Shown: positions 6,413-44,061 of the stretch, one piece after another
Layout: the number at the start of each line of letters is the position of its first letter
Position numbering within the stretch: position 1 is the first letter of the stretch
Assembly: GCA_902601455.1 (NCBI GenBank)
Contig: CACKNC010000006.1
Span: 6,875 to 70,874, forward strand
From: an uncultured Alphaproteobacteria bacterium
GTDB lineage: Bacteria > Pseudomonadota > Alphaproteobacteria > HIMB59 > GCA-002718135
DNA: 64,000 nucleotides
Reading direction: 5' to 3'
The notes under the pieces: generated by a model
Database searches by the model: none
Seen by the model: the letters and a program-made list of their open reading frames with translations, nothing else
What the model was told of the DNA's origin: nothing
Program-made: the position numbers and the translations under genes

Positions 6413-8188
6413 TTGAAGATGGCAAAAATGACTACTGAGGAAGCTTTTGTAAAAGTTCTACAAATGCACGGAATACAACACTCATTTGGAATAATTGGAT
6501 CAGCGTTTATGCCAATTTCTGATCTTTTTCCTAAAGCTGGTATTACTTTTTGGGATGTTGCTCATGAATCAAATGGTGGTCTTATTGCTGACGGTTATAC
6601 TAGATCAACTGGTAAAATTGCTATGTGTATTGCCCAAAATGGGCCTGGTATTACAGGTTTAGTTACTCCTGTTAAGACAGCATATTGGAATCACACACCT
6701 ATGCTTTTAGTAACACCTCAAGCTGCAAATAAGACAATGGGTCAAGGAGGTTTCCAAGAAGTAGAACAAATGAATCTATTTAAGGATATGGTTTGTTATC
6801 AAGAAGAGGTTCGTGATGCATCTAGAATGGCAGAAGTTTTAAATAGAGTAATCTTAAAAGCAAAAAGAGGATCAGCTCCAGCTCAAATAAATGTTCCAAG
6901 AGATTTTTGGACACAAGTTGTTGATATTGAACTACCATCTATAATAGAGTTTGAAAGACCTGCTGGTGGTGCTTCAGCAATTACCGAAGCAGCTGAACTT
7001 TTATCTAAAGCTAAATTTCCAGTAATATTATCAGGTGCAGGTGTTGTACTAGCTGATGCAATTGAAGATTGTAAAAATATAGCAGAAAAATTAGATGCCC
7101 CTGTCGCATGTGGTTATCAGCATAATGATAGTTTTCCAGGTAAACATCCACTTGCAGTTGGCCCGCTAGGTTACAATGGATCCAAAGCTGCTATGGAAAT
7201 AATTTCAAAAGCTGATGTCGTATTGGCATTAGGCACAAGATTAAATCCTTTTTCTACTTTGCCAGGTTATGGTATTGATTATTGGCCCAAAGAAGCTAAG
7301 ATTATTCAAGTCGATATTAACTCAGATAGAATTGGTCTAGCAAAAAAGATATCAGTTGGAATTTGCGGAGATGCTAAATTAGTTGCCAAACAAATTCTTG
7401 GTCAATTATCATCAACTGCTGGGGATGATGGAAGAGAAGATAGAAAAGCACTAATACATCAAACTAAATCTTCTTGGCTTCAAACACTTACAAGCCTTGA
7501 TCATGAAGAGGATGATGAGGGCACTTCATGGAATAAAGACTCACGAGAGAGAGACCCGGATAGGATGTCTCCGCGCATGGCATGGAGAGCTATTCAAGCC
7601 GGTCTGCCTGATAATGCAATCATTTCCAGTGATATTGGAAACAACTGTGCTATTGGAAACGCCTACCCAACTTTTGAACAAGGAAGAAAATATTTAGCAC
7701 CTGGTTTATTTGGACCATGTGGTTATGGTTTTCCTTCAGTTTTAGGAGCAAAAATTGGTTGTCCAGATACACCTGTTGTTGGTTTTTCTGGAGATGGAGC
7801 TTTTGGAATTAGTATGAGTGAAATGACTTCATGTAGCAGAGAAGAATGGCCAAACATTACAATGGTAATATTCAGAAATTATCAATGGGGAGCAGAGAAA
7901 AGAAATACAACTCTTTGGTATGATAACAACTTTATTGGTACAGAGCTTGATCCAAAATTAAGTTATGCAAAAATTGCAGATGCTTGTGGTTTTAAAGGTG
8001 TTAAAGTTACTACTCAATCAGAGTTAACAGAAGCACTTAAAGCTTCTTGTGTAGATCAAATGAATGGTATAACAACTTTCATCGAAGTTATATTAAATCA
8101 AGAACTTGGTGAGCCATTTAGAAGAGATGCAATGAAAGCACCAGTTGAAGTAGCAGGAATTAATAGTCAGGATACTGTCGCTCAATAA
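6413..8188 (+). CDS. xsc: Sulfoacetaldehyde acetyltransferase (TPP-dependent)
   Basis: 591 aa three-domain TPP enzyme. The N-terminus MTTEEAFVKVLQMHGIQHSFGIIGSAFMPISDLFPKAGITFWDVAHE and the blocks NGPGITGLVTPVKTAYWNHTPMLLVTPQAANKT and QGGFQEVEQM match Xsc as I remember it. The TPP motif is GDGAFGIS...N. ATG 6419 (GGAG 8 nt upstream) is a more likely start than TTG 6413. Confidence 0.85.
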   Translation: MKMAKMTTEEAFVKVLQMHGIQHSFGIIGSAFMPISDLFPKAGITFWDVAHESNGGLIADGYTRSTGKIAMCIAQNGPGITGLVTPVKTAYWNHTPMLLVTPQAANKTMGQGGFQEVEQMNLFKDMVCYQEEVRDASRMAEVLNRVILKAKRGSAPAQINVPRDFWTQVVDIELPSIIEFERPAGGASAITEAAELLSKAKFPVILSGAGVVLADAIEDCKNIAEKLDAPVACGYQHNDSFPGKHPLAVGPLGYNGSKAAMEIISKADVVLALGTRLNPFSTLPGYGIDYWPKEAKIIQVDINSDRIGLAKKISVGICGDAKLVAKQILGQLSSTAGDDGREDRKALIHQTKSSWLQTLTSLDHEEDDEGTSWNKDSRERDPDRMSPRMAWRAIQAGLPDNAIISSDIGNNCAIGNAYPTFEQGRKYLAPGLFGPCGYGFPSVLGAKIGCPDTPVVGFSGDGAFGISMSEMTSCSREEWPNITMVIFRNYQWGAEKRNTTLWYDNNFIGTELDPKLSYAKIADACGFKGVKVTTQSELTEALKASCVDQMNGITTFIEVILNQELGEPFRRDAMKAPVEVAGINSQDTVAQ

Positions 8189-8190
8189 AC

Positions 8191-9792
8191 TCATTGATCT
8201 GCGATAATCATATCTGCTGCTTTTTCAGCAATCATTATTGTTGGTGCATTAGTGTTGCCTGATGTAATGTTTGGCATAATTGAAGCATCTACAACTCGTA
8301 AATTTTCAACCTCATGAACTTTAAGCTTATCACTCACTACTGAAGTTGTGTCATTCCCCATTTTACAAGTCCCAACTGGATGAAAAATGGTTTGTACATG
8401 TTCACTAGCTGCCTGAATAATTTCTTCATCACTTTGATTATTTATACCTGGTCTGAATTCTTCTGGTTGATATTTTTTAAATGTTTCACTTTCAAAAATA
8501 ATTTTTCTCACCAATCTTATTCCTGCTGCTGAGACTTGGCGATCATCTTCAGTTGAGAGATAATTCATTTTTATTTTTGGATAAACTCTATTATCCTTAG
8601 AAGTGATAGATATTTCTCCTCTGCTCGTAGGTCTTATATTTGCAACTGTTGGAGTAAAGGCATTAAAATTATGAAGATTAGAGCCTCCTAATCTATCAGT
8701 ACTAATAGGTTGAACATGAAATTGTAAATTTGGCGTTTCTCTACTTTCATCACTTTTGGCAAAACCACAAAGTTGACTTGCTCCCATCGTCATGACACCT
8801 TTTCTTAAAAAAACAAATTCCATTCCAATCATCATTTTTCCAAAAAAACTATTGATGGTTTTGTTAAGTGTTTTGATATTTTTTACCTTATATACAGGTC
8901 GTAACATTAAGTGATCTTGTAAGTTTTTTCCAACACTTGAGTTATGATGAGTAACTGAGATCCCTAATTCTCTTAATTTATTTTCATCTCCAATACCTGA
9001 TGTTTGAAGAATATGTGGAGAGCCTATTGAGCCAGCAGATAGAATAACTTCTTTATTAGCCTTCACGGTAATTAATTCACCATTTTTCCAATAGGAGATA
9101 CCGATAGCTTTTTTACCCTCAAAATTTATTTGCTTAACATGTGCTTTTACTTCAACCTTTAAGTTCGATCTTTTTTTTGCAGGATTAAGATAACCTACAG
9201 CAGTACTGCATCGTAAACCATTTTTTTCTGTTACTTGAAAATAATCACAACCAAAATTATCACCAGTATTAAAATCATTAATTTTAGGAATACCCATTTC
9301 TTCAGCGGCATTTTGAAACTCATCTAAGATATCAAGTTTAATTCTTATATTTGAAACTGATAAAGGACCACCGACTCCATGAAACTCACTTTTTCCTCTC
9401 TCTTGATTTTCAGATTTTATAAAGTAAGGGAGCACATCATCCCAACCCCATCCTGTGTTACCTTGTTGACGCCAAATATCATAATCTTGTGACTGCCCTC
9501 TAATATATAAAAGACCATTAATAGAAGAACTGCCACCCAGAGTTTTACCACGAGGGTAATTTATGGATCTTCCATTTATTGACTCATCAGGTTCAGTTTT
9601 GAAGCACCAATCAGTTTTAGGGTTGTGCATGGTTTTATAATAACCGACGGGAATATGTATCCATGGATAAGTATCTTTGCCCCCTGCTTCTAAAAGTAGA
9701 ACAGAGATCTGAGGATTTGCAGTCAGTCGATTCGCGAGAACACATCCAGCTGACCCAGCACCAACAATCACATAGTCAAAATGGTCATTCAT
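8191..9792 (-). CDS. GMC-family FAD oxidoreductase (choline dehydrogenase-like; candidate alcohol-sulfonate, e.g. isethionate, dehydrogenase)
   Basis: 533 aa. The N-terminal FAD fold is DYVIVGAGSAGCVLANRL, with GMC signature blocks GGSSSINGLLYIRG and HPVGTCKMG. The substrate is inferred only from context (convergent with xsc, divergent from the TRAP operon). Confidence 0.85.
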   Translation of the reverse strand: MNDHFDYVIVGAGSAGCVLANRLTANPQISVLLLEAGGKDTYPWIHIPVGYYKTMHNPKTDWCFKTEPDESINGRSINYPRGKTLGGSSSINGLLYIRGQSQDYDIWRQQGNTGWGWDDVLPYFIKSENQERGKSEFHGVGGPLSVSNIRIKLDILDEFQNAAEEMGIPKINDFNTGDNFGCDYFQVTEKNGLRCSTAVGYLNPAKKRSNLKVEVKAHVKQINFEGKKAIGISYWKNGELITVKANKEVILSAGSIGSPHILQTSGIGDENKLRELGISVTHHNSSVGKNLQDHLMLRPVYKVKNIKTLNKTINSFFGKMMIGMEFVFLRKGVMTMGASQLCGFAKSDESRETPNLQFHVQPISTDRLGGSNLHNFNAFTPTVANIRPTSRGEISITSKDNRVYPKIKMNYLSTEDDRQVSAAGIRLVRKIIFESETFKKYQPEEFRPGINNQSDEEIIQAASEHVQTIFHPVGTCKMGNDTTSVVSDKLKVHEVENLRVVDASIMPNITSGNTNAPTIMIAEKAADMIIADQ

Positions 9793-9983
9793 TTGTATCC
9801 TTAACCCAATAAAATTATTTTAAATAACTTAATTATTCATTAGAGTTTAATTAAATAACTTCAATAACATAGTGTTTAACAGTAAAATTTTATTTATTTT
9901 TTTATTAAATTATAAAATTTTTATTTTTTTATTTAATATATAAATTAAGATTTTTTGAGATAAATTATATCAATAAGCTCTTT

Positions 9984-9997
9984 GTAAAACGTTTTAC
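9984..9997. promoter_or_regulatory. Perfect 14-bp CG-centred palindrome GTAAAACGTTTTAC (LacI/GalR-type operator shape)
   Basis: Read directly. It is its own reverse complement and ends 36 nt upstream of the TRAP binding-protein ATG (10034). Confidence 0.55.
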
Positions 9998-10033
9998 GCA
10001 TGGTAGACCTAAAAAAAATTTTCGGGAGGAAAT

Positions 10034-11131
10034 ATGAAAAAAATATTTACAGTAGTTTTAGGAACAGTTGTTGTATTAGGGTTTATGACTGTATCTGCAA
10101 AAGCTAAAACACTTAAGTGTCAAACAGTTTTGAATGCAAAAAGTGATGAAGCAAGACTATTAAAAGAAGAGTTTACTGACAGAGTAACGGAGTTAACTGG
10201 TGGATCTTTAAAATTTGAAATAATGCCAGCTGGTACAGTTGTTGGTGGAAAAGAAACACTAGATGCTATTGATAAAGGCTTAATCGATTGTGGTTTTGCT
10301 TGGACTCACTATTGGTCAGGTGAGCATCCTGCTGCAATGTTGTTTGGATCACCTGTTGCAGGTGGTGGTGTAGGTATCGATAACCTTGCTTTTTTATCTT
10401 GGTTTAATGCTGCTGGTGGAAAAGAATTATATGAACAACTTTGGGATGAAATGGATAGAGACATAAAAGGATTTATGCTTCAACCTGTTGGACCAGAAGC
10501 TCTTGGTTGGTTTAAAGAACCAATTAATAGCATGGAAGATTTCAGAAAATATCGTTTTAGAACACCTCCAGGAATACCAGGTCAAACTTATAAAGATATT
10601 GGTATTGCTTCAGTAGCAATGGGTGGTGGAGATATTCTTCCTGCTCTTGAAGCTGGCACAATTGATGCGGCAGAATGGTGTTGTCCAAAACCTGATAGTG
10701 TATTTGGTTTTCAAAAAGTATTAAAACACTATTATCTTCAAGGTTTACACCAAGTTGTTGTAAATGCAGATTTTTATATGAACGGCACTACATATGATGG
10801 CTTAACCGATCATGAAAAAGCTTCATTACAGGTAGCAGCTGATGCATCATTGATGCTAACTTTGTCTGATAGAATCTATGAAAATGGAAAAGCACTTAGA
10901 ATGTTAACAGAAGAAGCTGGTGTAATTTTACATGATACACCTACTGATTATTTTTCTGAGTATATGGCAGCAGCTTTAGCAACTTTAAATAAAAATGCTG
11001 AAGAAAATGAATTTTTTAATGAAGTTTATACTTCTATGAAAGAATTTGCTGATATTGCTGTTCCTTTCTGGAGTGGGGCTCAAATGTCTAATGCTAAGTT
11101 AGGTATGGCTCACGCAGCAACACTCAAATAA
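10034..11131 (+). CDS. TRAP transporter substrate-binding protein (DctP-type)
   Basis: 365 aa. Signal peptide MKKIFTVVLGTVVVLGFMTVSAKA, strong RBS GGGAGGA, followed by DctQ/DctM genes. Confidence 0.85.
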   Translation: MKKIFTVVLGTVVVLGFMTVSAKAKTLKCQTVLNAKSDEARLLKEEFTDRVTELTGGSLKFEIMPAGTVVGGKETLDAIDKGLIDCGFAWTHYWSGEHPAAMLFGSPVAGGGVGIDNLAFLSWFNAAGGKELYEQLWDEMDRDIKGFMLQPVGPEALGWFKEPINSMEDFRKYRFRTPPGIPGQTYKDIGIASVAMGGGDILPALEAGTIDAAEWCCPKPDSVFGFQKVLKHYYLQGLHQVVVNADFYMNGTTYDGLTDHEKASLQVAADASLMLTLSDRIYENGKALRMLTEEAGVILHDTPTDYFSEYMAAALATLNKNAEENEFFNEVYTSMKEFADIAVPFWSGAQMSNAKLGMAHAATLK

Positions 11132-11143
11132 AAAAAAATAAAT

Positions 11144-11170
11144 AAAGAGCGGACTAGTTTCCGCTCTTTT
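11144..11170 (+). terminator. Intercistronic stem-loop plus T-run after the TRAP binding-protein gene
   Basis: AAAGAGCGG (11144-11152) pairs with CCGCTCTTT (11161-11169) across an 8-nt loop. T residues follow. Confidence 0.6.
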
Positions 11171-11189
11171 ATTCCTATAAAACAAAACA

Positions 11190-11798
11190 ATGTCAGACAA
11201 TATTCAGGATTACGATTTAAAAGATGAGTTAATTGCAGAGAGAAAAGTTGGGTATTTTGAAAAACCAACTGATATGTCTGATTTAAATTATAAAATAATT
11301 ATTAATATAGACAAATTTAGTTTGATGATTGGCAGAATTGTCTCATGGATTACTGTGCCTCTATTTCTTTGTATGGCTTATGAAGTTATAGCAAGAAAGT
11401 TTTTTTTAGCTCCAACTTATTGGGCTTATGACATGAGTAGGTTTTTTTATGGTGCTATGTTTATGCTTGGATCAGGATATGCATTATCAAGAGGTGTTCA
11501 TATCAGAGCTGATTTTTTGTATCGTAATTTTAAAGCAAAGACTCAAGGTATTGTTGATTTCTGGTTATACTTATTTTTTTATTTTCCAGGGCTTATATTT
11601 TTTTTATACATGACAACAATTTTTGTAATTGAGTCAATGCAACGTGGTGAAAAAGGTATGGATACTGCATGGATGCCATATATGTGGCCCATCAAATCGT
11701 GTTTGTGGATAGGTATTGTTTTATTGTTAATTCAAGGAATATCTGAATTGTTAAAAAGTCATTATGCAATGAAGAAGGGCAAATGGCCAGGTGAGTAA
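11190..11798 (+). CDS. TRAP transporter small permease (DctQ-type)
   Basis: 202 aa with 4 hydrophobic helices. It lies between the DctP and DctM genes and its stop overlaps the dctM start. Confidence 0.8.
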   Translation: MSDNIQDYDLKDELIAERKVGYFEKPTDMSDLNYKIIINIDKFSLMIGRIVSWITVPLFLCMAYEVIARKFFLAPTYWAYDMSRFFYGAMFMLGSGYALSRGVHIRADFLYRNFKAKTQGIVDFWLYLFFYFPGLIFFLYMTTIFVIESMQRGEKGMDTAWMPYMWPIKSCLWIGIVLLLIQGISELLKSHYAMKKGKWPGE

Positions 11799-13132
11799 TG
11801 ATAGCTGATTTTATTAGTCCAGAGATATTAGGAATTTTTTTAATAGCAGTTATGCTATTTTCTATATTTGTAGGTTTTCCAATTTCTTTCACTCTAATAT
11901 TTCTTGGTTTTGTATTTGGGTACTTAGGTTTTGGAAAATTAGTATTTTATTTAATGACATTGCAATTCTCAATGGTTATGACTGAACAAACATTAGCCGC
12001 CGTTCCGCTGTTTGTTTTTATGGGCATTATGATGGAGCAAGCAGGATTAATGGAAAGATTATTTGCATCAGTTCAAATGATGCTCTCCAGAGTTAGAGGC
12101 TCACTATTTTATGCAGTACTTTTTGTTTCAATAATTTTCGCAGCAGCAACAGGTATAGTTGGAGCATCAGTAACTATACTTGGAATAATGGCTGCTAAAT
12201 CAATGAATAGATCAGGTTATGATGTTAGATTAGCTGCTGGCACAATTACCGCTGGTGGAACACTTGGTATATTAATTCCTCCGAGTATTATGTTAGTTGT
12301 AATGGGTCCGATTATGGAAATACCTGTTACGGATCTTTTTGCAGCAGCGATAATACCGGGAATTATGCTAGCCGTTCTTTATGCGGGATATACAACTATT
12401 CGATGTTACTTAGATCCTTCTCTTGGACCTGTAGTTCCAGAGGAAGATAGAGAAAAAGATATTAAAGTTGTCCTATATGAGTTTTTTATGGGACTTGTTC
12501 CACCTGCCTTATTGGTTTTTTCTGCTCTTGGAAGTATTTTATTAGGCTTAGCTACCCCTACAGAAGCAGCTGGATGTGGAGCTCTTGGAGCAATTGTTTT
12601 GGCACTTGCTTACAGGAAACTTACATTGGAAAAGTTAAAAGATGGTCTTATTAAAACTTTAGAGATAACAGCTTTAATCATGCTCTTAGTTGCGGCTTCA
12701 AATTTCTTTGGTGCAGTTTTTGCTCGATTAGGAACTCCAACAATGATTACTGACTTTTTACTTTCACTTGAAGTTAATCGATATTTAATTTTATTTATAG
12801 TTATGGGAATGATTTTTCTATTAGGATGGCCATTGGAATGGGTGCCTATTGTATTAATTGTTGTTCCAATTATTTTACCTCTTATCGAAGGATTAGGATT
12901 TAACCTTATATGGTTTGCAATACTTGTTGCAGTTAATTTACAAACAGCCTGGCTCTCACCACCTGTCGCCTTATCTGCGTATTTCTTAAAAGGTGTTGTG
13001 CCTGAATGGGATTTAAAAGATATCTACATTGGAATGATGCAATTTATGGTTATTCAAGTGATTGGTTTAATCTTAATTGTAATATTCCCTCAGATTGCTT
13101 TATGGCTTCCTAACTATATTTACGGTAGTTAA
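11798..13132 (+). CDS. TRAP transporter large permease (DctM-type)
   Basis: 444 aa polytopic protein. Typical DctM blocks: AVPLFVFMGIMMEQAGL, TGIVGASVT and GTLGILIPPS. Confidence 0.9.
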   Translation: MIADFISPEILGIFLIAVMLFSIFVGFPISFTLIFLGFVFGYLGFGKLVFYLMTLQFSMVMTEQTLAAVPLFVFMGIMMEQAGLMERLFASVQMMLSRVRGSLFYAVLFVSIIFAAATGIVGASVTILGIMAAKSMNRSGYDVRLAAGTITAGGTLGILIPPSIMLVVMGPIMEIPVTDLFAAAIIPGIMLAVLYAGYTTIRCYLDPSLGPVVPEEDREKDIKVVLYEFFMGLVPPALLVFSALGSILLGLATPTEAAGCGALGAIVLALAYRKLTLEKLKDGLIKTLEITALIMLLVAASNFFGAVFARLGTPTMITDFLLSLEVNRYLILFIVMGMIFLLGWPLEWVPIVLIVVPIILPLIEGLGFNLIWFAILVAVNLQTAWLSPPVALSAYFLKGVVPEWDLKDIYIGMMQFMVIQVIGLILIVIFPQIALWLPNYIYGS

Positions 13133-34456: not shown

Positions 34457-35529
34457 TGAAATCAGAAGAATTAAAAAAATATTTTGTTGATTATCAACTT
34501 ACTCTACAAAATTGTAATAAAGACTCAATTAATAATTCTCTAAAAAAATATTTCTCAAATAATTCTTTAATTCATTTTTGTCATCCTTTTGGATCTTTTA
34601 GTGGATTAGATAGTTTGTTATCTAAATGTTTATTGCCCTTAATTGAAAGTATCCCTGATTTAGAAAGAAGAGATATGATTGTTATGGCAGGAACTACGCC
34701 TGAAGGAAAAGATTGGATAGGTACCATGGGCAATTACATGGGAACTTTTCTAAAACCATTTTTAGATATTCCTCCAACTGGTAATTTAATTCATATGCGG
34801 TATCATGAATTTTTCCAAATTGAAAATAATCAAATTATTGAAATGCAGTCTATATGGGATTTGCCAGAATTAATGATGCAAGCAAATGCTTGGCCTATGG
34901 CTCCTCAATTGGGAGCTTTTTTATGTACACCTTCTCCAATGACGGGTGATGGCTTATCAATAAGTGGTGATGGAAAAAAAAATTTAGACCATGTAATTGA
35001 TATGCTGCATGGCTTATCCAAACATCCAAGTAATCCCGATCCAAAAATTATGGAATTAGAAAAATACTGGCACCCAAAAGTTAATTGGTATGGACCTGCT
35101 GGTATTGGTACTGGAAGAGGTATAGCTGGTTTTAGGCATTGGCATCAAATTCCTTTTTTGCGAGCTATGCCAGATCGTAAAGGAGGTTCATCAAATGAAA
35201 AATTAGCCTTTGAAGGTATGGAAGATTTACAAACGCATTGGATGCATGAAGGAAATTATGTTTGTGAAACAGGTTGGCCTAACATGCGGTTAACAATTAC
35301 AAATGATGGATGGATGGGGATAGCTCCATCAAAACAACCACTGGAGATGCGTAGTTTAGATTTTTGGCGAATTGAAAATGGATTAATTAGAGAAAACTGG
35401 GTGTTAATCGATTTACTTGACATTTACAGGCAAATCAATGTTGATGTCTTTGATAGAATTAAGGAATTTAATAAAGCGAAAAACATAGGTGAAATAAATT
35501 TATCAAATGGCCTAAATAGTATTAAGTAA
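34456..35529 (+). CDS. Tandem NTF2-like (SnoaL/ester-cyclase-like) protein, function unknown; paralog of 22757-23854
   Basis: 357 aa. See the shared blocks listed for 22757-23854. There is a 1-nt overlap with the SDR gene. Confidence 0.6.
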   Translation: MKSEELKKYFVDYQLTLQNCNKDSINNSLKKYFSNNSLIHFCHPFGSFSGLDSLLSKCLLPLIESIPDLERRDMIVMAGTTPEGKDWIGTMGNYMGTFLKPFLDIPPTGNLIHMRYHEFFQIENNQIIEMQSIWDLPELMMQANAWPMAPQLGAFLCTPSPMTGDGLSISGDGKKNLDHVIDMLHGLSKHPSNPDPKIMELEKYWHPKVNWYGPAGIGTGRGIAGFRHWHQIPFLRAMPDRKGGSSNEKLAFEGMEDLQTHWMHEGNYVCETGWPNMRLTITNDGWMGIAPSKQPLEMRSLDFWRIENGLIRENWVLIDLLDIYRQINVDVFDRIKEFNKAKNIGEINLSNGLNSIK

Positions 35530-35531
35530 TT

Positions 35532-36434
35532 TTAATTTATTGTAGCTCTATCAACCTGAATGGGCTTTAAGGTACCTTTTTTCTTAAATGCTTCTCGGTA
35601 AGTTATATAGACAACAGAAATAAAGATAATCACTCCTCCAACCCATGTCCAAATATCTGGCTGTTCAGAAAAAATAAATAGACCTATTAGTGAAGCCCAA
35701 ATTAGTTTTGTAAACTGTAGAGGCATTACAAAAGTCGTATCAGACATTTTAAATGCTTGAGCTAGACACCAGTGAGAAAGCAATCCTGAAGCACCCATCA
35801 AAATAAAAATTATTAATTGATTCAGGTTTATATTTTCCCAATAAAAAAATGATAAAATAAAAAAAGCAGGTGTCATATATAATAAATGATAAAAAATAAT
35901 TGTAAGACTTGAATCAGTTGCAGATAATTTTTTTACAAAAATCAGCACAAAAGAAAAACTAAAAGATGCAATTAACATCAAAATAGTTCCAAGCTCAAAA
36001 GGCATATATCCTGGTCGTATAATTATTAAAATTCCTACAAAACCTAATAAAAGCGCTGCAGTACGATGAAAACGAATAACTTCTCCAAGAATTAAAACTG
36101 CAAGTACAGTTGTGAATAAAGGTGTTGTAAAACCAAGTGCTGTAGCCTTTTCAAAATGCATCATCCCAATAGCACTAAACCAACAAATCATCGAAATAAT
36201 ATTGATGAGTGCTCTGAAAATTTGCAAATGCATATTATCTGTTTGAAGAGCTCTAAAGTTATTTCTTGCAACAAATGGAGTAATAATAATTAACCCCATC
36301 AAGCATCGGTAAAAGCAAATAATAATTGGGTGGAGTTCATTGGATAGCAGTTTTACACCAGCTCCCATAAATGAGCCAAATAAAGTTGCTCCTATTGCTA
36401 AAAGTGCAACAGTTAAAAATTTATTTCTTTTCAC
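35532..36434 (-). CDS. DMT-superfamily (EamA-like) permease
   Basis: 300 aa with 10 hydrophobic helices in a two-EamA-repeat architecture. Confidence 0.8.
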   Translation of the reverse strand: MKRNKFLTVALLAIGATLFGSFMGAGVKLLSNELHPIIICFYRCLMGLIIITPFVARNNFRALQTDNMHLQIFRALINIISMICWFSAIGMMHFEKATALGFTTPLFTTVLAVLILGEVIRFHRTAALLLGFVGILIIIRPGYMPFELGTILMLIASFSFSFVLIFVKKLSATDSSLTIIFYHLLYMTPAFFILSFFYWENINLNQLIIFILMGASGLLSHWCLAQAFKMSDTTFVMPLQFTKLIWASLIGLFIFSEQPDIWTWVGGVIIFISVVYITYREAFKKKGTLKPIQVDRATIN

Positions 36435-37345
36435 TATTGTGCAGCTATAACTGAAGCTGCAATAGAAGCTATACGAGAAGATGAACTATCTGCTCTACTT
36501 GTTACAACAACAGGGACTTTACCTCCAACAATAAAACCTGCTGCACAAGCTCCCATAAAATATACCATTATTTTTGATATTGAATTACCTGTCTCTAAAT
36601 TTGGAACTAAAAGTATATCAGCTTGACCCGCTACTTCATTAGAAATATTTTTTATGGCTGCTGCCTGAGGAGAAACAGCATTGTCAAAAGCTAAAGGTCC
36701 ATGAACATAGGCTTCTATATTTTCTTTAATTGCTCGTTCCATTATTTCTTTTGCTTCTATTGAACTTGGCATACTTTCAATAGGATCTTCTGTTCCTGAT
36801 AGTATTGCAACTTTTGGTTTGGATATATTTATACGTTTAGCAAAATCAATAACATTTTTAAGTATATGCATTTTAACATCTACTCTGGGTGCAACATTTA
36901 ATGCTCCATCAGTTATAAAAAGAGGTTTATCATTTTCCGATAAAGTCATATGCCAAATATGACTTAATCTTTTTCCCTCAATGAGTCCAAATTCTTTTTT
37001 TAAGTATGTTCTCATTAAAACATCGGTATGAAGATTGCCTTTAATCATGATTTTTATTTTATTATCTCGGGCAAGTTCAGCTCCAGTTATTGCGGCTTCT
37101 TTGTCATCAGAAGAATGAATTATTTCGTAAGGATTTAAATCCCATTTAATTTGTTCTGCTTTATCTTTGATGGTATTTTTATCACCTATAAAAACAGGCT
37201 TTATTAGATCTAATTCAACTGACTTTTTTGCTGATTCCATCGAGGATTCATGATCGGCACATACAATTCCTGCATTCATACCAGGTGTTTTTTTGGCTAC
37301 TGATATTAAATTATTTGGAATTTTAGCTTCTTTAGATGTTAGCAT
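36434..37345 (-). CDS. pta: Phosphate acetyltransferase (short PTA_PTB form)
   Basis: 303 aa. Blocks FITDGALNVAP and ADILLVPNLETGN, plus the C-terminal SRADSSSSRIASIA, are typical of phosphate acetyl/butyryl transferases. The short form is the kind found with xsc. Confidence 0.75.
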   Translation of the reverse strand: MLTSKEAKIPNNLISVAKKTPGMNAGIVCADHESSMESAKKSVELDLIKPVFIGDKNTIKDKAEQIKWDLNPYEIIHSSDDKEAAITGAELARDNKIKIMIKGNLHTDVLMRTYLKKEFGLIEGKRLSHIWHMTLSENDKPLFITDGALNVAPRVDVKMHILKNVIDFAKRINISKPKVAILSGTEDPIESMPSSIEAKEIMERAIKENIEAYVHGPLAFDNAVSPQAAAIKNISNEVAGQADILLVPNLETGNSISKIMVYFMGACAAGFIVGGKVPVVVTSRADSSSSRIASIAASVIAAQ

Positions 37346-37478
37346 AATTGATAATTTTTCTTCTATACTAGGGCGTCAATTTTTCCTACGAAATTAAGCT
37401 TTTGTAAGAGAATTCCTCTTGGATTAGCTATGTGGATAATATATGGCTTAGTTAAATTTGCCAAATTAGGGATTGATT

Positions 37479-38819
37479 ATGGACTTAGAAAATAGAAACG
37501 AATTACCAAATTCACTCGAAGAACATTGGATGCCTTTCACATCCAATCATGATTTTAAAGATAACCCAAGATTAATGGTCAAGGCCGAAGGGGTCTATTA
37601 TACTGATCATCATGGTAACCAATTAATTGATGCAAGCTCAGGATTATTTTGTAGTCCTGCTGGTCATGGTCGAAAAGAAATAAGAGATGCTGTTTATAAA
37701 CAACTTGAACAACTTGATTATGTTCAACCATTTCAACAAGGTTATAATGGTTCTTTTGAGTTAGCTAGAAAAATTTCTAAACACACTCCAGATGATTTGA
37801 ATAAAATATTTTTTACAATGTGTGGTTCATCTGCTGTTGATACAGCAATTAAAACTGCCATAGCCTATTTTAAAGCAAAGGGAGAAGGACATCGACATCA
37901 TATTGTTGGTCGTGAAAGAGGATATCACGGAATGAACATTGGCGGAATATCAGTTGGAGGTATGGTGGCTAATAGAAAAACATTCTCAAGTATTTTAATG
38001 CCAAACACTCATCATTTAAGACATACGCATCTTCCTGAGAATACTTTTGTAAAAGGGGAACCTGAAACTGGTGAATATCTTGCAGATGATTTAGAGCGTA
38101 TAGCAGGTCATATTGGTGGAGAAAACATTGCTGCATGTATAGTAGAGCCCGTTGCTGGCTCAACAGGAACTCTAGTTCCCCCAAAAGGATATTTACAAAA
38201 GCTTAGAAAAATTTGTGATAAACACGGCATCTTGTTAATTTTTGATGAAGTTATTACTGGTTGGGGTAGAATGGGTGAAGCATTCGGTGCTCAAGCATTT
38301 GGAGTAACACCTGATATTTTAACAATGGCAAAAGCTGTAACAAATGGTGTTGTACCTCTTGGAGCGGTGGCTTCCAGAGAACATATTTATGATACTATGG
38401 TTGATGCAGCACCAAATGGGGCTATAGAATTCTTTCATGGTTATACTTACTCAGGTATTCCATGTTCAGTCGCCGCCGGGTTAGCTATGCAAGATATTAT
38501 TGAAAAAGAAGATTTAATTAATCGCTCAAAAGAAATGTCCCCCTATTTTTTAGAAGGGCTATTTACTCTAAAAGATATCGATGGTGTAACAGATATTAGA
38601 GGTTACGGTATGATGGGTGGTATTGATCTGCGTATGGATGAACGCTTAGGCAAAGCTGGATATAATTGTTTCAAATCATTGTTCGCAGCTGGATTGAGTT
38701 TAAAAGCAACAGGTGATTGTTTAATCGTTGCCCCTCCGTTTATTTCAGAAAAAAAACATATCGATGAAATAATTGAAAAACTAAGATTAGGAATAACTAA
38801 TTACTTTAAAGGTAAATAA
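37479..38819 (+). CDS. Class-III omega-amino acid:pyruvate aminotransferase (taurine--pyruvate or beta-alanine--pyruvate)
   Basis: The ORF track starts at TTG 37473, but ATG 37479 has AGGGA 6 nt upstream. Blocks HWMPFTSN, RERGYHGMN, ACIVEPVAGSTGTLVPPKGYLQKLRKICDKHGILLIFDEVITGWGRMG, TMAKAVTNG (PLP lysine) and FHGYTYSG closely resemble omega-amino acid:pyruvate transaminases. Confidence 0.85.
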   Translation: MDLENRNELPNSLEEHWMPFTSNHDFKDNPRLMVKAEGVYYTDHHGNQLIDASSGLFCSPAGHGRKEIRDAVYKQLEQLDYVQPFQQGYNGSFELARKISKHTPDDLNKIFFTMCGSSAVDTAIKTAIAYFKAKGEGHRHHIVGRERGYHGMNIGGISVGGMVANRKTFSSILMPNTHHLRHTHLPENTFVKGEPETGEYLADDLERIAGHIGGENIAACIVEPVAGSTGTLVPPKGYLQKLRKICDKHGILLIFDEVITGWGRMGEAFGAQAFGVTPDILTMAKAVTNGVVPLGAVASREHIYDTMVDAAPNGAIEFFHGYTYSGIPCSVAAGLAMQDIIEKEDLINRSKEMSPYFLEGLFTLKDIDGVTDIRGYGMMGGIDLRMDERLGKAGYNCFKSLFAAGLSLKATGDCLIVAPPFISEKKHIDEIIEKLRLGITNYFKGK

Positions 38820-39934
38820 TGAAAATTGGTGTTCCGTCTGAAATTAAGGCTCAAGAGTCCAGAGTAGGACTAACTCCATCAAGTGTTCAAGAATTAACTA
38901 ACCATGGACATAAAGTATTAGTTCAGGATAACGCAGGTTTTGGTGCGGGTTTTGAAAATGATGATTATCAAAAAGCTGGGGCACATATAGCTCCTACAGC
39001 TGGTGATGTTTTTAATGACTCAGATATGATTGTTAAGGTTAAAGAACCACAGTCTGAAGAAGTAAGCATGTTAAGAGAAAATCAACTGTTATTTACATAC
39101 CTTCATCTTTCAGCAGCACCTGAATTAACAAAAGGGTTAGTTGATTCGAAATCAATCTGCATAGCATATGAGACGGTTACTGATGAAAATAATAGATTGC
39201 CCTTACTTGCACCAATGAGTGCTGTTGCAGGAAGAATGTCCATACAGGCAGGCGCACATTCCTTAGAGAAACCTCAAGGTGGAAGAGGTTTGCTAATTGG
39301 TGGAGCTCCAGGTGTAAATCCTGGTAATGTTTTGATTTTAGGTGGAGGTGTTGTTGGTGAAAATGCTGCAATTATTGCAACAGGAATGCAGGCTAAAGTG
39401 CATATTGTTGATAAATCAGAAAATCGTCTTAAAGAGCTGCAAATGAAATTCGGTGATCGAATCATACCTTTGGTTTCAGATGAAATAAATTTAGAACAGT
39501 ATGTTGCTGAAACAGATTTACTAATAGGTGGTGTATTAATTCCTGGAGCTAATGCTCCAAAATTAATTTCAAAAGAAATGATTAAAATCATGAAAAGAGG
39601 ATCTGTTATAGTCGATGTTGCGATTGATCAAGGAGGCTGTGTTGAAACAAGTAAACCTACAACACATGCTAATCCAACTTTTGTTATTGATGATGTAGTG
39701 CATTACTGTGTTGCAAATATGCCAGGCGGAGTTCCAATGACCTCAACTTTGGCTTTAAATGCTGCGACTTTGCCATTCGTTTTAAATCTTGCACAAAATG
39801 GCTACCGTGATGCTTTAAACAGTGATGCAAATTTTCTAGCTGGTTTAAATGTATGTCAAGGAAGTATTACTTACAAAGCGGTAGCAGATGATTTGGATTA
39901 TGAGTTTATTGATCCAAGTAATGCAATAAATTAA
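38819..39934 (+). CDS. ald: Alanine dehydrogenase
   Basis: 371 aa. The N-terminus is MKIGVPSEIKAQESRVGLTPSSV, with NAD motif ILGGGVVGENAA and HYCVANMPG. Confidence 0.9.
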   Translation: MKIGVPSEIKAQESRVGLTPSSVQELTNHGHKVLVQDNAGFGAGFENDDYQKAGAHIAPTAGDVFNDSDMIVKVKEPQSEEVSMLRENQLLFTYLHLSAAPELTKGLVDSKSICIAYETVTDENNRLPLLAPMSAVAGRMSIQAGAHSLEKPQGGRGLLIGGAPGVNPGNVLILGGGVVGENAAIIATGMQAKVHIVDKSENRLKELQMKFGDRIIPLVSDEINLEQYVAETDLLIGGVLIPGANAPKLISKEMIKIMKRGSVIVDVAIDQGGCVETSKPTTHANPTFVIDDVVHYCVANMPGGVPMTSTLALNAATLPFVLNLAQNGYRDALNSDANFLAGLNVCQGSITYKAVADDLDYEFIDPSNAIN

Positions 39935-39944
39935 TTAAATTTAT

Positions 39945-40922
39945 ATGACTGACTCAAATGATGAGTTAATGATGGAGACAATGTATTGGTGGGGAATACC
40001 AACATTGTTTAGATGTGAACATAATAAAGATTTATCTAAATGTGATATTGCTCTAGCAGGTGTGCCACACAGCACAGGAAATGGAACAACTGAGAGAGAT
40101 CAACACTTAGGTCCAAGAGCAGTTCGTCATGTATCTGCAGGTTTAAGACGCGTGCATTTAGATTTTAATATTAATCCATGGAAAAAGAAAAAAATATTCG
40201 ATTTAGGTGATGTAGCTCTTCCTCACGCAAATAATAATGAAAAGTGCATAGAAGATATTACAAGTTTCTACTCAAAAATTGCTAATGCAAAAAAACCTGT
40301 AGTATCAATAGGTGGTGACCACTCTATTACAGGTGGGATTCTTCAAGGTCTAGGTTCTAATAATTTAGAAATGACAAATGGAAAACAAATATCCTTTTTA
40401 CACATTGATGCTCATACTGACACGTTTAGTCAACTTGATCATTTCATGGGAGCTAAAAAAAGTGCTGCTCACTGGGGAGCCTATCTCGTAGATCAAGGAA
40501 TTATAAATCCTCAGAATAGTATGCAAATTGGAATGCGCGGAAACCCACGTACTTTAGATTGGTTACAACCAAGTTATGATCTTGGATATAATGTTGTGAC
40601 AATGGAAGAATTTAAAAAAAGAGGTATTAAAGAAGTCATAAATGAGACTCTTGAAAAAATCGGCGATAATCCAATCTATATTACTTTCGATTTAGACTCT
40701 TTAGATGCTTCAGTTGCTCCAGCTGTTTCTAACATTGAGCCAAGTTTTAATGGATTTACAATAGATGAAGCAAAAGCATTAATTCAATCTGTAAAAAACA
40801 AAAATGTTATTGGTGGAGATGTGGTATGTTTAATGCCTACCAAAGATCAGAAGAATAATATTACTTCAATGGTCGCAGCATCTATAATGTTTGAGATAAT
40901 AAGTGTTATCGCTTACAAATGA
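39945..40922 (+). CDS. Arginase/agmatinase-family ureohydrolase (guanidino-compound amidinohydrolase)
   Basis: 325 aa. Mn-binding motifs GGDHSITGG, HIDAHTDT and TFDLDSLD. It lies 10 nt downstream of ald. Confidence 0.85.
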   Translation: MTDSNDELMMETMYWWGIPTLFRCEHNKDLSKCDIALAGVPHSTGNGTTERDQHLGPRAVRHVSAGLRRVHLDFNINPWKKKKIFDLGDVALPHANNNEKCIEDITSFYSKIANAKKPVVSIGGDHSITGGILQGLGSNNLEMTNGKQISFLHIDAHTDTFSQLDHFMGAKKSAAHWGAYLVDQGIINPQNSMQIGMRGNPRTLDWLQPSYDLGYNVVTMEEFKKRGIKEVINETLEKIGDNPIYITFDLDSLDASVAPAVSNIEPSFNGFTIDEAKALIQSVKNKNVIGGDVVCLMPTKDQKNNITSMVAASIMFEIISVIAYK

Positions 40923-41467
40923 TTTATAGAGTAAAATTTATTTTTAATAATAATAAAATGCTTTCATTAGCTTTAACTTCTACTTCAATGTTTATCTTAT
41001 ACATAATGCTAGTTTTAAGTCGTGTAAGTGGCTGTTTTAATCTTGAGGTGGGATCAAATTCTTTAGGCTTATCTTTCTCTTATACCATTGAGATGGTCCA
41101 AAGATTTTTCGATAGTAGAAATAAAGAACAGCTGTTGTGTTATAGTAAATTTTTAAAAATATGGGATATAATTTTTGCATTTATATATACCACAATGTAT
41201 ACTTCTTGGATTGCTTTACTCTTTAAAAATAAGCACGTTTATTTAATTATCCCTATTCTTGTAATGATTTGTGATTGGTCAGAAAATTATCTAGAAATAT
41301 TAATGTTAGAAAGTTATTTACAATCTAGTATAATACCTCAAAATTTTGTATCATTAGGCTCAGGAACAAATTCTTTAAAATGGACTTTATCAACTTTATC
41401 TTATTTAATAATTCTATTTGGAGTAATTCAAATTTCAGTGAAATATTTTAGAAAAAAATCAAACTAA
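40919..41467 (+). CDS. Hypothetical membrane protein
   Basis: 182 aa with about 4 hydrophobic helices and no motif I recognise. There is a 4-nt overlap with the ureohydrolase gene. Confidence 0.5.
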   Translation: MIYRVKFIFNNNKMLSLALTSTSMFILYIMLVLSRVSGCFNLEVGSNSLGLSFSYTIEMVQRFFDSRNKEQLLCYSKFLKIWDIIFAFIYTTMYTSWIALLFKNKHVYLIIPILVMICDWSENYLEILMLESYLQSSIIPQNFVSLGSGTNSLKWTLSTLSYLIILFGVIQISVKYFRKKSN

Positions 41468-42516
41468 TTAAATTTTTTTGCAGCGTAAGACATTATTTTT
41501 AGTTTTTTTAATGCAAGCTCTCTATTTAAATGGCCTAACCCACAATCAGGAGCCGCAATTAATTGATCTTTTGAAATAAACTTTAATGCCTCATTAATCC
41601 TCCCTTCTATTTCTTCAGTAGTTTCAATTTTAGAACTTGCTATTTTAATTAATCCAAAAATTATTTTTGTATATTTGTAGTCTTTAAGTAAAATTAGATC
41701 ATTATGCCGATGAGCATCTTCAATAGATACTGTATCAATAATTGATTTATCCAAAGCTTTAGCTATCTTTTTATAGGAATCTAATGGAGCTTTTGGATAA
41801 TTAACTGCATCTAATTTATCTGGGTATCCACAACAAATATGGGTTATTTTTTCAACGCCATTTTGATTTATTCCATCAAAACATTTTTCTAAATTTTTAA
41901 TACCAAAATTAAGAGCATTATCTGGTTTTCTTGCAAATAACGGTTCATCAACTTGAATAAATTTACACCCAGCATCGACAAGCCTTTTAATTTCAACATT
42001 AATAGCAATGGCTAAGTCATTACCCATTTCTTCATCAGAAGCATAATAGGTATTGGCTATTGTGTCAGTTATGGTCATTGGTCCAGGAATAGTAACTTTA
42101 ACAGGTTTTGATGTAAGTGATTGATTTTGCTTCCACTCACGAACTAAAAACTCTTCTTTTGATTTTATCTTATTAGTAATCGTTGGAAGCCAACATTTAT
42201 AGTTACCTGTTCTCGCAACTTTTTCAGTAAGTGTATCAAAATCAACACCTTCTAAATGACGACAATGATAATGAATATAATTTTCTCTTCTTACTTCACC
42301 GTCGGTCAAAACATCAATGCCACATTCTTCCTGATCTAAAATTACTTGCCTAGCTGCTTTAAAAAAAATTTCATCTGCCCCTGATCCCATACGATTGATT
42401 TCTTCTTCATAAAATTTTGTAGGATTAGCTGTATCCGTTCCACCTGAAGCATTAAACCAATCTGTGATTTTTAAAAAAGAGGGTTTAGGAAAGGCCCCTA
42501 TAACAGTTGTAAGCAT
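41464..42516 (-). CDS. MetE C-terminal-domain-like Zn-dependent methyltransferase (second paralog)
   Basis: 350 aa. The N-terminus is TTVIGAFPKP. Zn-ligand motifs are THICCGY (H-x-C) and APDCGLG. It lies directly downstream of the sulfatase gene. Confidence 0.7.
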   Translation of the reverse strand: MLTTVIGAFPKPSFLKITDWFNASGGTDTANPTKFYEEEINRMGSGADEIFFKAARQVILDQEECGIDVLTDGEVRRENYIHYHCRHLEGVDFDTLTEKVARTGNYKCWLPTITNKIKSKEEFLVREWKQNQSLTSKPVKVTIPGPMTITDTIANTYYASDEEMGNDLAIAINVEIKRLVDAGCKFIQVDEPLFARKPDNALNFGIKNLEKCFDGINQNGVEKITHICCGYPDKLDAVNYPKAPLDSYKKIAKALDKSIIDTVSIEDAHRHNDLILLKDYKYTKIIFGLIKIASSKIETTEEIEGRINEALKFISKDQLIAAPDCGLGHLNRELALKKLKIMSYAAKKFN

Positions 42517-42519
42517 AAC

Positions 42520-44061
42520 TTAATTTATCATTTTTCTAGATTGAGGTCCATTAACTCTTACAACACCATCTTTTGAAACTTGCAAACTTGAAAGCTGTCT
42601 ATCTTGATGTCTAAGTCTATGACTTAATAATTCACTCAATAATGTATTTTTAATTTCATAATATTTTTTATCTTCTGCTAAATTTTTCATCTCCTGAGGA
42701 TCATTTTCGAGATCGAATAACAATGCTGGTAAACTTGGAAAATGTACATATTTCCATTTATTTGTTCTAATGCAAATTAAGGAACATTCTTCTGGGGCTA
42801 ATATTTGTTCTTTAACAAATTGTGAATAATGACTTTCACTGAAATCAAATTCAAAAATTACATGAGATTTTATGGAATCTCTTTTACCTTTTTGTGTATA
42901 ATCCTTTAGTGATTCACCACTCCAATTAACTGGTATATCAGCTTTTAACCAATCAAGGATTGTAGGGGCCAAATCCACTGACTCAGTGAAATCACTTATT
43001 TCATAATTTTTTTCTCCAGGGTTATAAATTATTAGAGGTATTCTATAAGATGAGTCCCACCAACCTAATTTACCCCACATTCTATTTTCGCCTAATAATT
43101 CTCCATGATCACTAGTGAAGATTATTAGAGTATCTTCATGTAAATTATTTTGTTCTAAGCTTTTTAAAATTCTTCCAATATTATGATCAACCTCCGCACA
43201 CATTCCAAGATATACCGCTATTAGATTTTTTTTGTCTTGATTATTTAAATCTTTATACCGAACTTCCTTATATAAATCTTTATTCATAAATTTTTTTGCT
43301 ACTTCTTTTAAAAAGGGATGATCATTAAGCATTTCTAAATATGTGCTATGCTCTTTAGGTAACTCAATATCATTTGGATTAATAAGACTATGCCAAGGTT
43401 CAGATACAAACATTGGGGGATGTGGTCTTAAAAAAGATACATGATAAAAAAAAGGTGAAGTTGTTTTTTCTAAATTATTTATAACTTTGTTTGCAAGAAA
43501 AGTTGTGTCTGAGTGTTTAGTTGGTATATGCCATGCTTTAAAAATATACCCCTCTCCATCTTTTGGTTTTTTTTCTTTATATAAATCTTTTGGATCTTTT
43601 ATATTATAGCCTTTTGATTTTAAAAAGTTTGCCCAAAGGATGGGGTTTTCTGAAGTAAGGTCACAAATAGGATCAAATCCTTCCATTGGAGACTCATATG
43701 TAAATTTTTTTTTATCATCATCCTTTAAAAAACGAGGATCCCATGTTGTATCTGTATAACCAAAAAGCTTTGGATCATGACCAACTTTTTTAACTTCTTT
43801 GGCAATATTAGTAAAACGTTTATCAAGAGGAGCACCATTTCTAACAGATCGATGAATGAAAGGATAAAGACCAGTAAGCATTGTCGCTCTTGATGGACCA
43901 CAAGGAATAATACCTGTAAAATGAGATTTAAATACAGTACTTTTTTTTGCTAGTTTATCTAAATTAGGAGTAACTGCATTTTTGTGTTTCATGAAACCAA
44001 AGCAGTCCCATCTCCATTGGTCAGCACATATAAATAGGACTGATTTATTTGATTTTTTCAT
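42520..44061 (-). CDS. Cys-type (formylglycine) sulfatase, apparently cytoplasmic
   Basis: 513 aa. Motifs FICADQWRWD, the C-x-P-x-R motif CGPSRATMLTG and TSDHGE. I see no N-terminal signal peptide. Confidence 0.85.
   Translation of the reverse strand: MKKSNKSVLFICADQWRWDCFGFMKHKNAVTPNLDKLAKKSTVFKSHFTGIIPCGPSRATMLTGLYPFIHRSVRNGAPLDKRFTNIAKEVKKVGHDPKLFGYTDTTWDPRFLKDDDKKKFTYESPMEGFDPICDLTSENPILWANFLKSKGYNIKDPKDLYKEKKPKDGEGYIFKAWHIPTKHSDTTFLANKVINNLEKTTSPFFYHVSFLRPHPPMFVSEPWHSLINPNDIELPKEHSTYLEMLNDHPFLKEVAKKFMNKDLYKEVRYKDLNNQDKKNLIAVYLGMCAEVDHNIGRILKSLEQNNLHEDTLIIFTSDHGELLGENRMWGKLGWWDSSYRIPLIIYNPGEKNYEISDFTESVDLAPTILDWLKADIPVNWSGESLKDYTQKGKRDSIKSHVIFEFDFSESHYSQFVKEQILAPEECSLICIRTNKWKYVHFPSLPALLFDLENDPQEMKNLAEDKKYYEIKNTLLSELLSHRLRHQDRQLSSLQVSKDGVVRVNGPQSRKMIN

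Follow-up and report, generated by a model that had tools for sequence, protein, structure and literature searches.

The stretch of DNA analysed here, called the window below, comprises 64,000 nt of contig CACKNC010000006.1 in GenBank assembly GCA_902601455.1, from an alphaproteobacterium of the order HIMB59, and carries a gene for an arginase-family ureohydrolase directly behind the genes for an omega-amino acid:pyruvate aminotransferase and an alanine dehydrogenase, Ald (Table 1). The G+C content of the window is about 31%, the genome amounts to 1.42 Mb in 39 contigs and is 86% complete, and the closest database proteins are found in marine metagenomes and in bins named MarineAlpha5 and Pelagibacter. 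The gene layout was obtained by open reading frame (ORF) calling and family scans with Pfam and NCBIfam profiles at curated cut-offs, and it reproduces exactly the arrangement described in an earlier note on this DNA, with the three genes co-directional and divergent from a short pta; the xsc gene that the note had placed in the same window is likewise present, about 30 kb upstream of the operon. According to the ORF coordinates the aminotransferase and Ald genes overlap by 1 nt and the ureohydrolase gene follows after a gap of 10 nt, and on the other strand the ORFs of the permease and of pta share one base (36434). The interval between Ald and the ureohydrolase contains no terminator-like site, and the three genes are predicted to be co-transcribed. 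Short contigs of relatives, mostly 90-95% alike, cover pta, the aminotransferase, Ald and the ureohydrolase in four public metatranscriptome runs, and no contig in these runs bridges the Ald-ureohydrolase junction. Promoter- and terminator-like sites in the operon region are not above shuffled controls, and there is no Rfam match to a riboswitch or other RNA element in 35000-42600.

Table 1. Features of the aminotransferase-Ald-ureohydrolase region, with xsc, in window coordinates.
Feature	Position	Strand	Evidence and remarks
EamA/DMT-family permease	35532-36434	-	PF00892 121 bits; last gene of leftward pta-permease pair
Short-form phosphate acetyltransferase (pta), PTA_PTB family	36434-37345	-	PF01515 124 bits
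Divergent intergenic region, 127 bp	37346-37472	.	Presumed shared promoter/regulatory region
Class-III omega-amino acid:pyruvate aminotransferase, candidate taurine:pyruvate aminotransferase	37473-38819	+	PF00202 287 bits
Alanine dehydrogenase (Ald)	38819-39934	+	TIGR00518 495 against cut-off 392
Arginase-family ureohydrolase, 325 aa	39945-40922	+	PF00491 216 bits against cut-off 22
Hydrophobic ORF, 182 aa	40919-41467	+	Overlaps ureohydrolase stop; doubtful or lineage-specific, possibly outside the system
Sulfoacetaldehyde acetyltransferase (Xsc)	6413-8188	+	TIGR03457 942 bits against cut-off 676; needed downstream if the amine is taurine

No NCBIfam model for agmatinase, arginase or formimidoylglutamase (HutG) reaches its cut-off with the ureohydrolase, the agmatinase models giving 121 against a cut-off of 174 (TIGR01230) and 167 against 302 (PRK02190). 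Its best solved relatives are GpuA (E 1e-37) and GbuA (E 1e-32) of P. aeruginosa with 29-33% identity, and an AF2 (AlphaFold 2) model with a pLDDT of 85 gives TM scores of 0.84-0.87 to GpuA (3NIP) at 29-30% identity. Among 1.8 billion cluster representatives 97 score below E 1e-30 to the protein, and a few entries down the list from this library the identity of its full-length relatives has already dropped from 48% to about 35%. The best explanation of the sequence and the model is that the 325-residue protein is a binuclear-metal amidinohydrolase forming a distinct clade in the agmatinase/guanidino-acid-hydrolase branch.

In an alignment of 79 core members of this clade with 14 GpuA-like sequences, the six metal ligands (H126, D155, H157, D159, D249 and D251 in the window's protein) are invariant in all 79 and are also present in the GpuA-like sequences, in agreement with the intact manganese motifs listed in the earlier note. 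The guanidinium group is oriented by a glutamate, E277 in arginase and E274 in E. coli agmatinase, where the E274A variant retains 1-2% of the activity (PMC8125230). In the window's protein this glutamate is replaced by Cys295; the position is Cys in 79/79 clade members and Glu in 14/14 of the GpuA-like sequences. The canonical proton-shuttle histidine (H141 in arginase, H163 in E. coli agmatinase) aligns with Ala174, with some uncertainty in the alignment of this loop, and an invariant histidine, His176, is found two residues later. Further residues invariant in the 79 sequences are Trp15-Trp16, the motif GNGTTERDQHL at 45-55, Arg69, His71, Glu265 and Lys300. Arg68 aligns with Arg72 of GbuA in the HMMER alignment and is Arg or Lys in 79/79 members; Arg72 has been equated with Arg105 of human GDAH, which is able to reach the sulfonate of taurocyamine (Sinn et al. 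2022, PMC9772407), and the conserved position would thus fit an acidic substrate. The remodelled Glu/His site means that the substrate or its binding mode may differ from those of the known guanidino-acid hydrolases. Overall the clade gives the impression of a hydrolase that cleaves an acidic guanidino compound and whose guanidinium pocket has been rebuilt; its activity as a hydrolase, the acidity of its substrate and the identity of that substrate are all inferred.

Compared with the characterized enzymes of the arginase family, the protein is closest in sequence and fold to GpuA (3NIP/3NIQ) and GbuA (3NIO), with which it shares the metal ligands, the acid-binding arginine and an expected chemistry yielding urea and an omega-amino acid. 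It differs from both in the Cys and Ala at the positions of the guanidinium Glu and the canonical His, in the loop GGTTNRxGxRHG, which reads GNGTTERDQHLG in the ureohydrolase, and in a two-residue insertion containing the invariant Glu265. E. coli agmatinase SpeB (7LOL/7LBA) has the same fold and metal site, but the window's protein falls below both agmatinase cut-offs, lacks Glu274 and has an arginine suited to acidic substrates. According to the EC entry for guanidinopropionase that enzyme has slow activity on taurocyamine. A functional model for taurocyamine cleavage is human AGMAT/GDAH, also of the arginase family, which splits taurocyamine, guanidinobutyrate and guanidinopropionate but not agmatine, and in which the acid group of the substrate is within reach of an arginine from the adjacent subunit (PMC9772407); the human enzyme is eukaryotic and mitochondrial, and is likened to the ureohydrolase by its described properties. 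The remark of the earlier note, whose author was aware of no characterized enzyme for this reaction, is therefore outdated, and taurocyamine hydrolysis as such is not new.

The aminotransferase matches the NCBIfam AptA equivalog with 582 against a cut-off of 500, and among solved structures it is closest to the Pseudomonas omega-amino acid/beta-alanine:pyruvate transaminases 4UHM, 4B98 and 3A8U (E 1e-116 to 1e-120), in keeping with the resemblance to beta-alanine:pyruvate transaminases pointed out before. The genome has six class-III aminotransferase matches, three of them omega-aminotransferases, and the window's is the only one to pass the AptA cut-off. The pta product passes the subfamily profile NF006045 (297 against 282) but not the pta equivalog TIGR00651 (64 against 311); it resembles phosphate butyryltransferases, and is encoded by the sole PTA_PTB-family gene of the genome. 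The xsc gene is likewise the sole match in the genome above the TIGR03457 cut-off. Classical taurine dissimilation proceeds by Tpa, Ald, Xsc and Pta (the Cook/Denger pathway; bioRxiv 10.1101/2024.12.10.627767). The window resembles it in that Ald and Xsc pass their equivalogs and that the aminotransferase-Ald pair with the divergent pta reproduces the classical gene set, and differs from it in that the aminotransferase is of the AptA type rather than a demonstrated Tpa, and in the distance to xsc; the described pathway contains no ureohydrolase. The immediate neighbours of xsc (8191-13132) encode an oxidoreductase of the GMC type, choline-dehydrogenase-like, and a TRAP transporter (DctPQM). 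No binding protein of the TauA/TauABC type was found in the window's genome, so that these neighbours could be the uptake system for sulfonates or taurine; nor was one found in two Ruegeria genomes.

Elsewhere in the genome a second ureohydrolase gene is located on contig C2 (85880-86824), alone among housekeeping genes, and its product is a GpuA ortholog with E 4e-115 to 3NIP. A guanidinopropionase is thus already encoded by a better candidate, which weakens the second of the two readings offered in the earlier note, namely that the window's enzyme is a guanidinopropionase feeding a beta-alanine transaminase. The genome check for malonate-semialdehyde dehydrogenase suggested there gave a positive result, as mmsA is present with 692 bits against a cut-off of 448. 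A search of the assembly, which is 86% complete, gave neither urease nor urea carboxylase; the urea is therefore probably lost or excreted by the host, and the proposed role of urea as a nitrogen supply is unlikely.

The distribution of the genes was counted in 187 species genomes of the order, 115 from the family of the window and 71 from its sister family; the genomes are mutually related and many are incomplete, and the counts are to be read as a pattern, with no statistical test. Orthologs of the aminotransferase are found in 93 and true xsc in 92 of the 115 genomes, and neither occurs in the 71 genomes of the sister family, where the ureohydrolase is also absent; in the window's family the latter is present in 23/115 (19/104 in the genus). 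Both xsc and the module of aminotransferase, Ald and pta are thus core to the family, and the ureohydrolase is an accessory gene carried by about 20%. In about 20 relatives it is placed at a constant distance behind the aminotransferase, directly after Ald. Relatives that lack the hydrolase keep the order of permease, pta, aminotransferase and Ald, and have the same convergent MetE-like gene right after Ald, so the ureohydrolase gene has moved or been inserted into the 3' end of an existing core operon. Orthologs of the window-type permease (53-90% identity) accompany pta, the aminotransferase and Ald with or without the ureohydrolase. In two other genera of the family the ureohydrolase gene is found elsewhere, behind an AsnC-type regulator, in a neighbourhood common to some SAR11 genomes. 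An ancestral divergent EamA/ureohydrolase pair, in which pta, the aminotransferase and Ald later became nested, was considered and rejected, as the DMT gene of the SAR11 ureohydrolase loci shares only 24-30% identity with that of the window and as the window-type DMT gene is present in hydrolase-free relatives.

By the proposed mechanism an imported omega-guanidino acid would be split by the ureohydrolase into urea and an omega-amino acid or amino-sulfonate, the aminotransferase would move the amino group onto pyruvate, and Ald would regenerate pyruvate and free ammonium, whereas the urea would have no further use. We consider this general mechanism of import, cleavage and deamination by the aminotransferase and Ald to have slightly better than even odds. 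If the compound is taurocyamine, the product would be taurine, which would be converted to sulfoacetaldehyde and then, with the help of Xsc and the neighbouring Pta, to acetyl-CoA and sulfite. Taurocyamine to taurine is the single most likely pair of substrate and product, and the probability that taurocyamine is the main physiological substrate in this genome is put at roughly 0.3; it is the leading candidate because the operon faces the sole pta, because it travels with xsc in the family, and because the GpuA ortholog covers the carboxylate homologue. The claim of the earlier note that the ureohydrolase feeds an amine to the aminotransferase and Ald thus finds support in the logic of the operon, but nothing ties the enzyme to taurocyamine specifically. 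Its sulfonate reading similarly gains from the single copies of pta and xsc in the genome and from the matched distribution of xsc and the aminotransferase in the family, and loses by the contexts of the orthologs, which lack taurine genes, and by the remodelled site. Five diverse ureohydrolase-bearing genomes each carry a true xsc away from the gene, as the taurocyamine reading would have it, although this does not tell that reading apart from others, and the TauE/SafE-family permease next to the ortholog in HTCC2255 also counts in favour of taurine. A wider proposal, to be held more tentatively still, is that the Cys-for-Glu enzymes of the whole clade, in SAR11, HIMB59-type bacteria, SAR116 and Roseobacters, are amidinohydrolases dedicated to taurocyamine (2-guanidinoethanesulfonate).

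Carriers of the clade in other lineages were identified by a scan of species-representative genomes. Orthologs with 61-70% identity are present in Pelagibacteraceae, a SAR116 bin, Puniceispirillales, Anderseniella and many Rhodobacterales, among the latter the cultured Ruegeria atlantica, R. arenilitoris, R. halocynthiae, Roseovarius litorisediminis, Nioella, Cognatiyoonia, Defluviimonas and HTCC2255. In a quick maximum-likelihood tree, a careful search being unfinished, the core clade is well supported and the group of the window is sister to the SAR11 group. The commonest setting in SAR11 is the different DMT gene mentioned above, divergent from the ureohydrolase, with neighbouring genes of the GMC oxidoreductase, HD, TauD-family and carnitine types, and in some SAR11 genomes an AsnC regulator is followed by the ureohydrolase. 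In Pelagibacter communis SCGC AAA795-E22 (L079:4548-12038) the ureohydrolase is located inside a co-directional string of genes, in the order BHMT-like, DMGDH-like (apparently two ORFs), ureohydrolase, methyltransferase, GbcA-like Rieske and M24 (creatinase/prolidase-fold). Rhodobacterales, Anderseniella and a Puniceispirillales bin share a setting in which the gene is the last of an operon, behind those for a binding protein of the OpuAC type, an ATPase and a permease. Downstream of this operon there is often a convergent gene of the GpuA type (399 bits to 3NIP), together with MttB-family, DMGDH-like and LysR genes, and in Anderseniella a DDAH/amidinotransferase-like gene precedes the operon. 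HTCC2255 (L104:7024-7788) has a TauE/SafE-family permease divergent from the ortholog. The constant partner across the lineages is thus an importer, of three different types, and the downstream pathway varies. The contexts of two more distant relatives (P0124 and P0129) are uninformative.

Several smaller observations were made at these loci. The OpuAC-type operon with a clade ureohydrolase, under LysR control, is seen at L107:1-16960 and at about 12 other Ruegeria loci. The AsnC settings (L060:5562-8993, L063 and L148, from SAR11 and a genus of the HIMB59 family) are preceded by a DtxR/MntR-type metal repressor and an ArsP_2-family permease, a curious set for a manganese enzyme. A gene next to the ureohydrolase in SAR11 and some Rhodobacteraceae was considered as xsc and rejected, as its product is a thiamine diphosphate (ThDP) enzyme with 383-398 bits against Xsc cut-offs of 620-676. 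This Xsc-like enzyme belongs to a recurring module near the ureohydrolase (L083:211-5917, and also L106, L125 and L103) together with a luciferase-like monooxygenase, a PF06684 'AA_synth' protein, an alpha/beta hydrolase and an aldehyde dehydrogenase, and the genome of the window has the ThDP enzyme and monooxygenase pair on another contig (C1:267933-270796).

Several results weigh against taurocyamine as the substrate. The close orthologs in SAR11, SAR116 and Roseobacters have no taurine genes as neighbours, and these contexts fit a guanidino-carboxylate or a substrate of the guanidinoacetate/creatine type equally well or better. Among marine alphaproteobacteria xsc is widespread enough for its co-occurrence to carry little weight. 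The aminotransferase, itself of the AptA/beta-alanine:pyruvate type, is only 35-36% identical to the best matches in most of the Roseobacter genomes searched, one strain of Ruegeria atlantica having an AptA-like match of 48% identity, and the neighbourhood of one 35%-identical Roseobacter aminotransferase contains a polyamine-type ABC transporter. With mmsA in the genome, a beta-alanine route is also open. The guanidinium Glu is lost in every member of the clade and the canonical catalytic His is displaced, which leaves room for a different class of substrate. The literature searched contains no report of taurocyamine as a solute in seawater, and no study of the ureohydrolase clade was found in the literature on taurocyamine or guanidino compounds in SAR11, seawater, Pelagibacter or Ruegeria, or on AEGEAN-169 and taurine.

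Of the other substrates, the most plausible, although improbable when taken alone, is a guanidino-carboxylate, 3-guanidinopropionate and/or 4-guanidinobutyrate and possibly a broad range as for GDAH, with the resulting beta-alanine or gamma-aminobutyrate (GABA) deaminated by the AptA-type aminotransferase and Ald; pta would then be adjacent only since the same aminotransferase also serves taurine. The nearest transaminases, the passed AptA cut-off, the presence of mmsA, the position of GpuA and GbuA as nearest solved hydrolases and the conserved acid-binding Arg are all as expected from such an enzyme. The genome, however, already has its GpuA ortholog, and in Ruegeria the clade member has a GpuA-like gene as its immediate neighbour, a pairing that speaks for a difference in substrate between the two; the clade is moreover only distantly related to GpuA and GbuA (29-33% identity) with a rewritten active site, and there is no semialdehyde dehydrogenase in or near the operon. 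Less probable is a guanidinoacetate or creatine-type substrate that would give glycine or sarcosine and urea, in which case the place behind Ald would be a permissive insertion site with no link to the pathway. The importers that the Rhodobacterales and the Puniceispirillales metagenome-assembled genome encode upstream of the ortholog are betaine-like, with DMGDH/sarcosine-dehydrogenase-like and MttB genes nearby, and the gene string of AAA795-E22 points in the same direction; the changes from Glu to Cys and from His to Ala may also free space around the leaving nitrogen for an N-methylated guanidine. In most of these loci, however, the DMGDH-like and MttB genes belong to other operons or to the opposite strand. 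Neither glycine nor sarcosine is a substrate of the flanking aminotransferase, the gene is kept exactly behind Ald in about 20 genomes of the lineage, and known creatinases have a fold different from that of the arginase family.

The least probable of the explanations is that the enzyme acts on another amidine or guanidine, such as an amidino-amino acid or a guanidine that carries a methyl or hydroxyl group, uses another metal, or catalyses a step after the aminotransferase. It would account for the loss of a near-universal Glu and the displaced His, fixed in 79/79 sequences, and for the new invariant residues (the WW at 15-16, GNGTTERDQHL, Glu265 and Lys300), and Ni-dependent guanidine and metformin hydrolases of the arginase fold are among the structural matches; the DDAH/amidinotransferase-like gene at the head of the Anderseniella operons and a DUF1989 gene after the ureohydrolase in close relatives could also be in keeping with it. 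Against this stand the six metal ligands and the acid-binding Arg, which are all kept, and the guanidino-acid hydrolases as closest matches in both fold and sequence, and the annotated neighbourhoods contain no accessory genes for Ni insertion.

The clade is abundant in ocean metagenomes, where single clusters at 90% identity have up to about 3,600 member sequences, and it spans dominant lineages of heterotrophs with an active site that breaks the rule of the family at a residue thought to be nearly indispensable. To identify its substrate would add a guanidino compound to the labile carbon, nitrogen and sulfur sources of the sea and reveal a bacterial source of urea, the genome of the window showing no use of urea itself, and the clade could show how the arginase fold works without the guanidinium-binding Glu. 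If the taurocyamine reading is true for the whole clade, a route from a guanidino-sulfonate by way of taurine to Xsc would open, and some of the ocean's most abundant heterotrophs would on balance release urea, from a phosphagen derivative that inventories of marine dissolved organic matter do not yet include. In annotation, genes of this clade should not be named agmatinase or guanidinopropionase.

The 182-residue ORF that overlaps the end of the ureohydrolase gene has no Pfam or NCBIfam match and is found in this genome and in one relative only, with 57% identity. The position 3' of the ureohydrolase is in relatives occupied by a DUF1989 gene of 286 codons, by another gene or by nothing. The possibility that the ORF is a decayed DUF1989 gene was rejected, as tblastn gave no similarity, and it is also unlike the 187-residue ORF that follows the gene of a 48%-identical relative; DUF1989 occurs in the window's genome solely within a long ORF elsewhere. 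A further class-III aminotransferase domain is encoded on contig C10 (5128-8142) in a 1004-residue protein, behind an N-terminal domain, with 998 bits to PRK06148, below the cut-off of 1128. The ORF of the window's aminotransferase opens with TTG at 37473, and the in-frame ATG at 37479, which is situated behind a purine-rich AGGGA stretch, is more likely to be its start.

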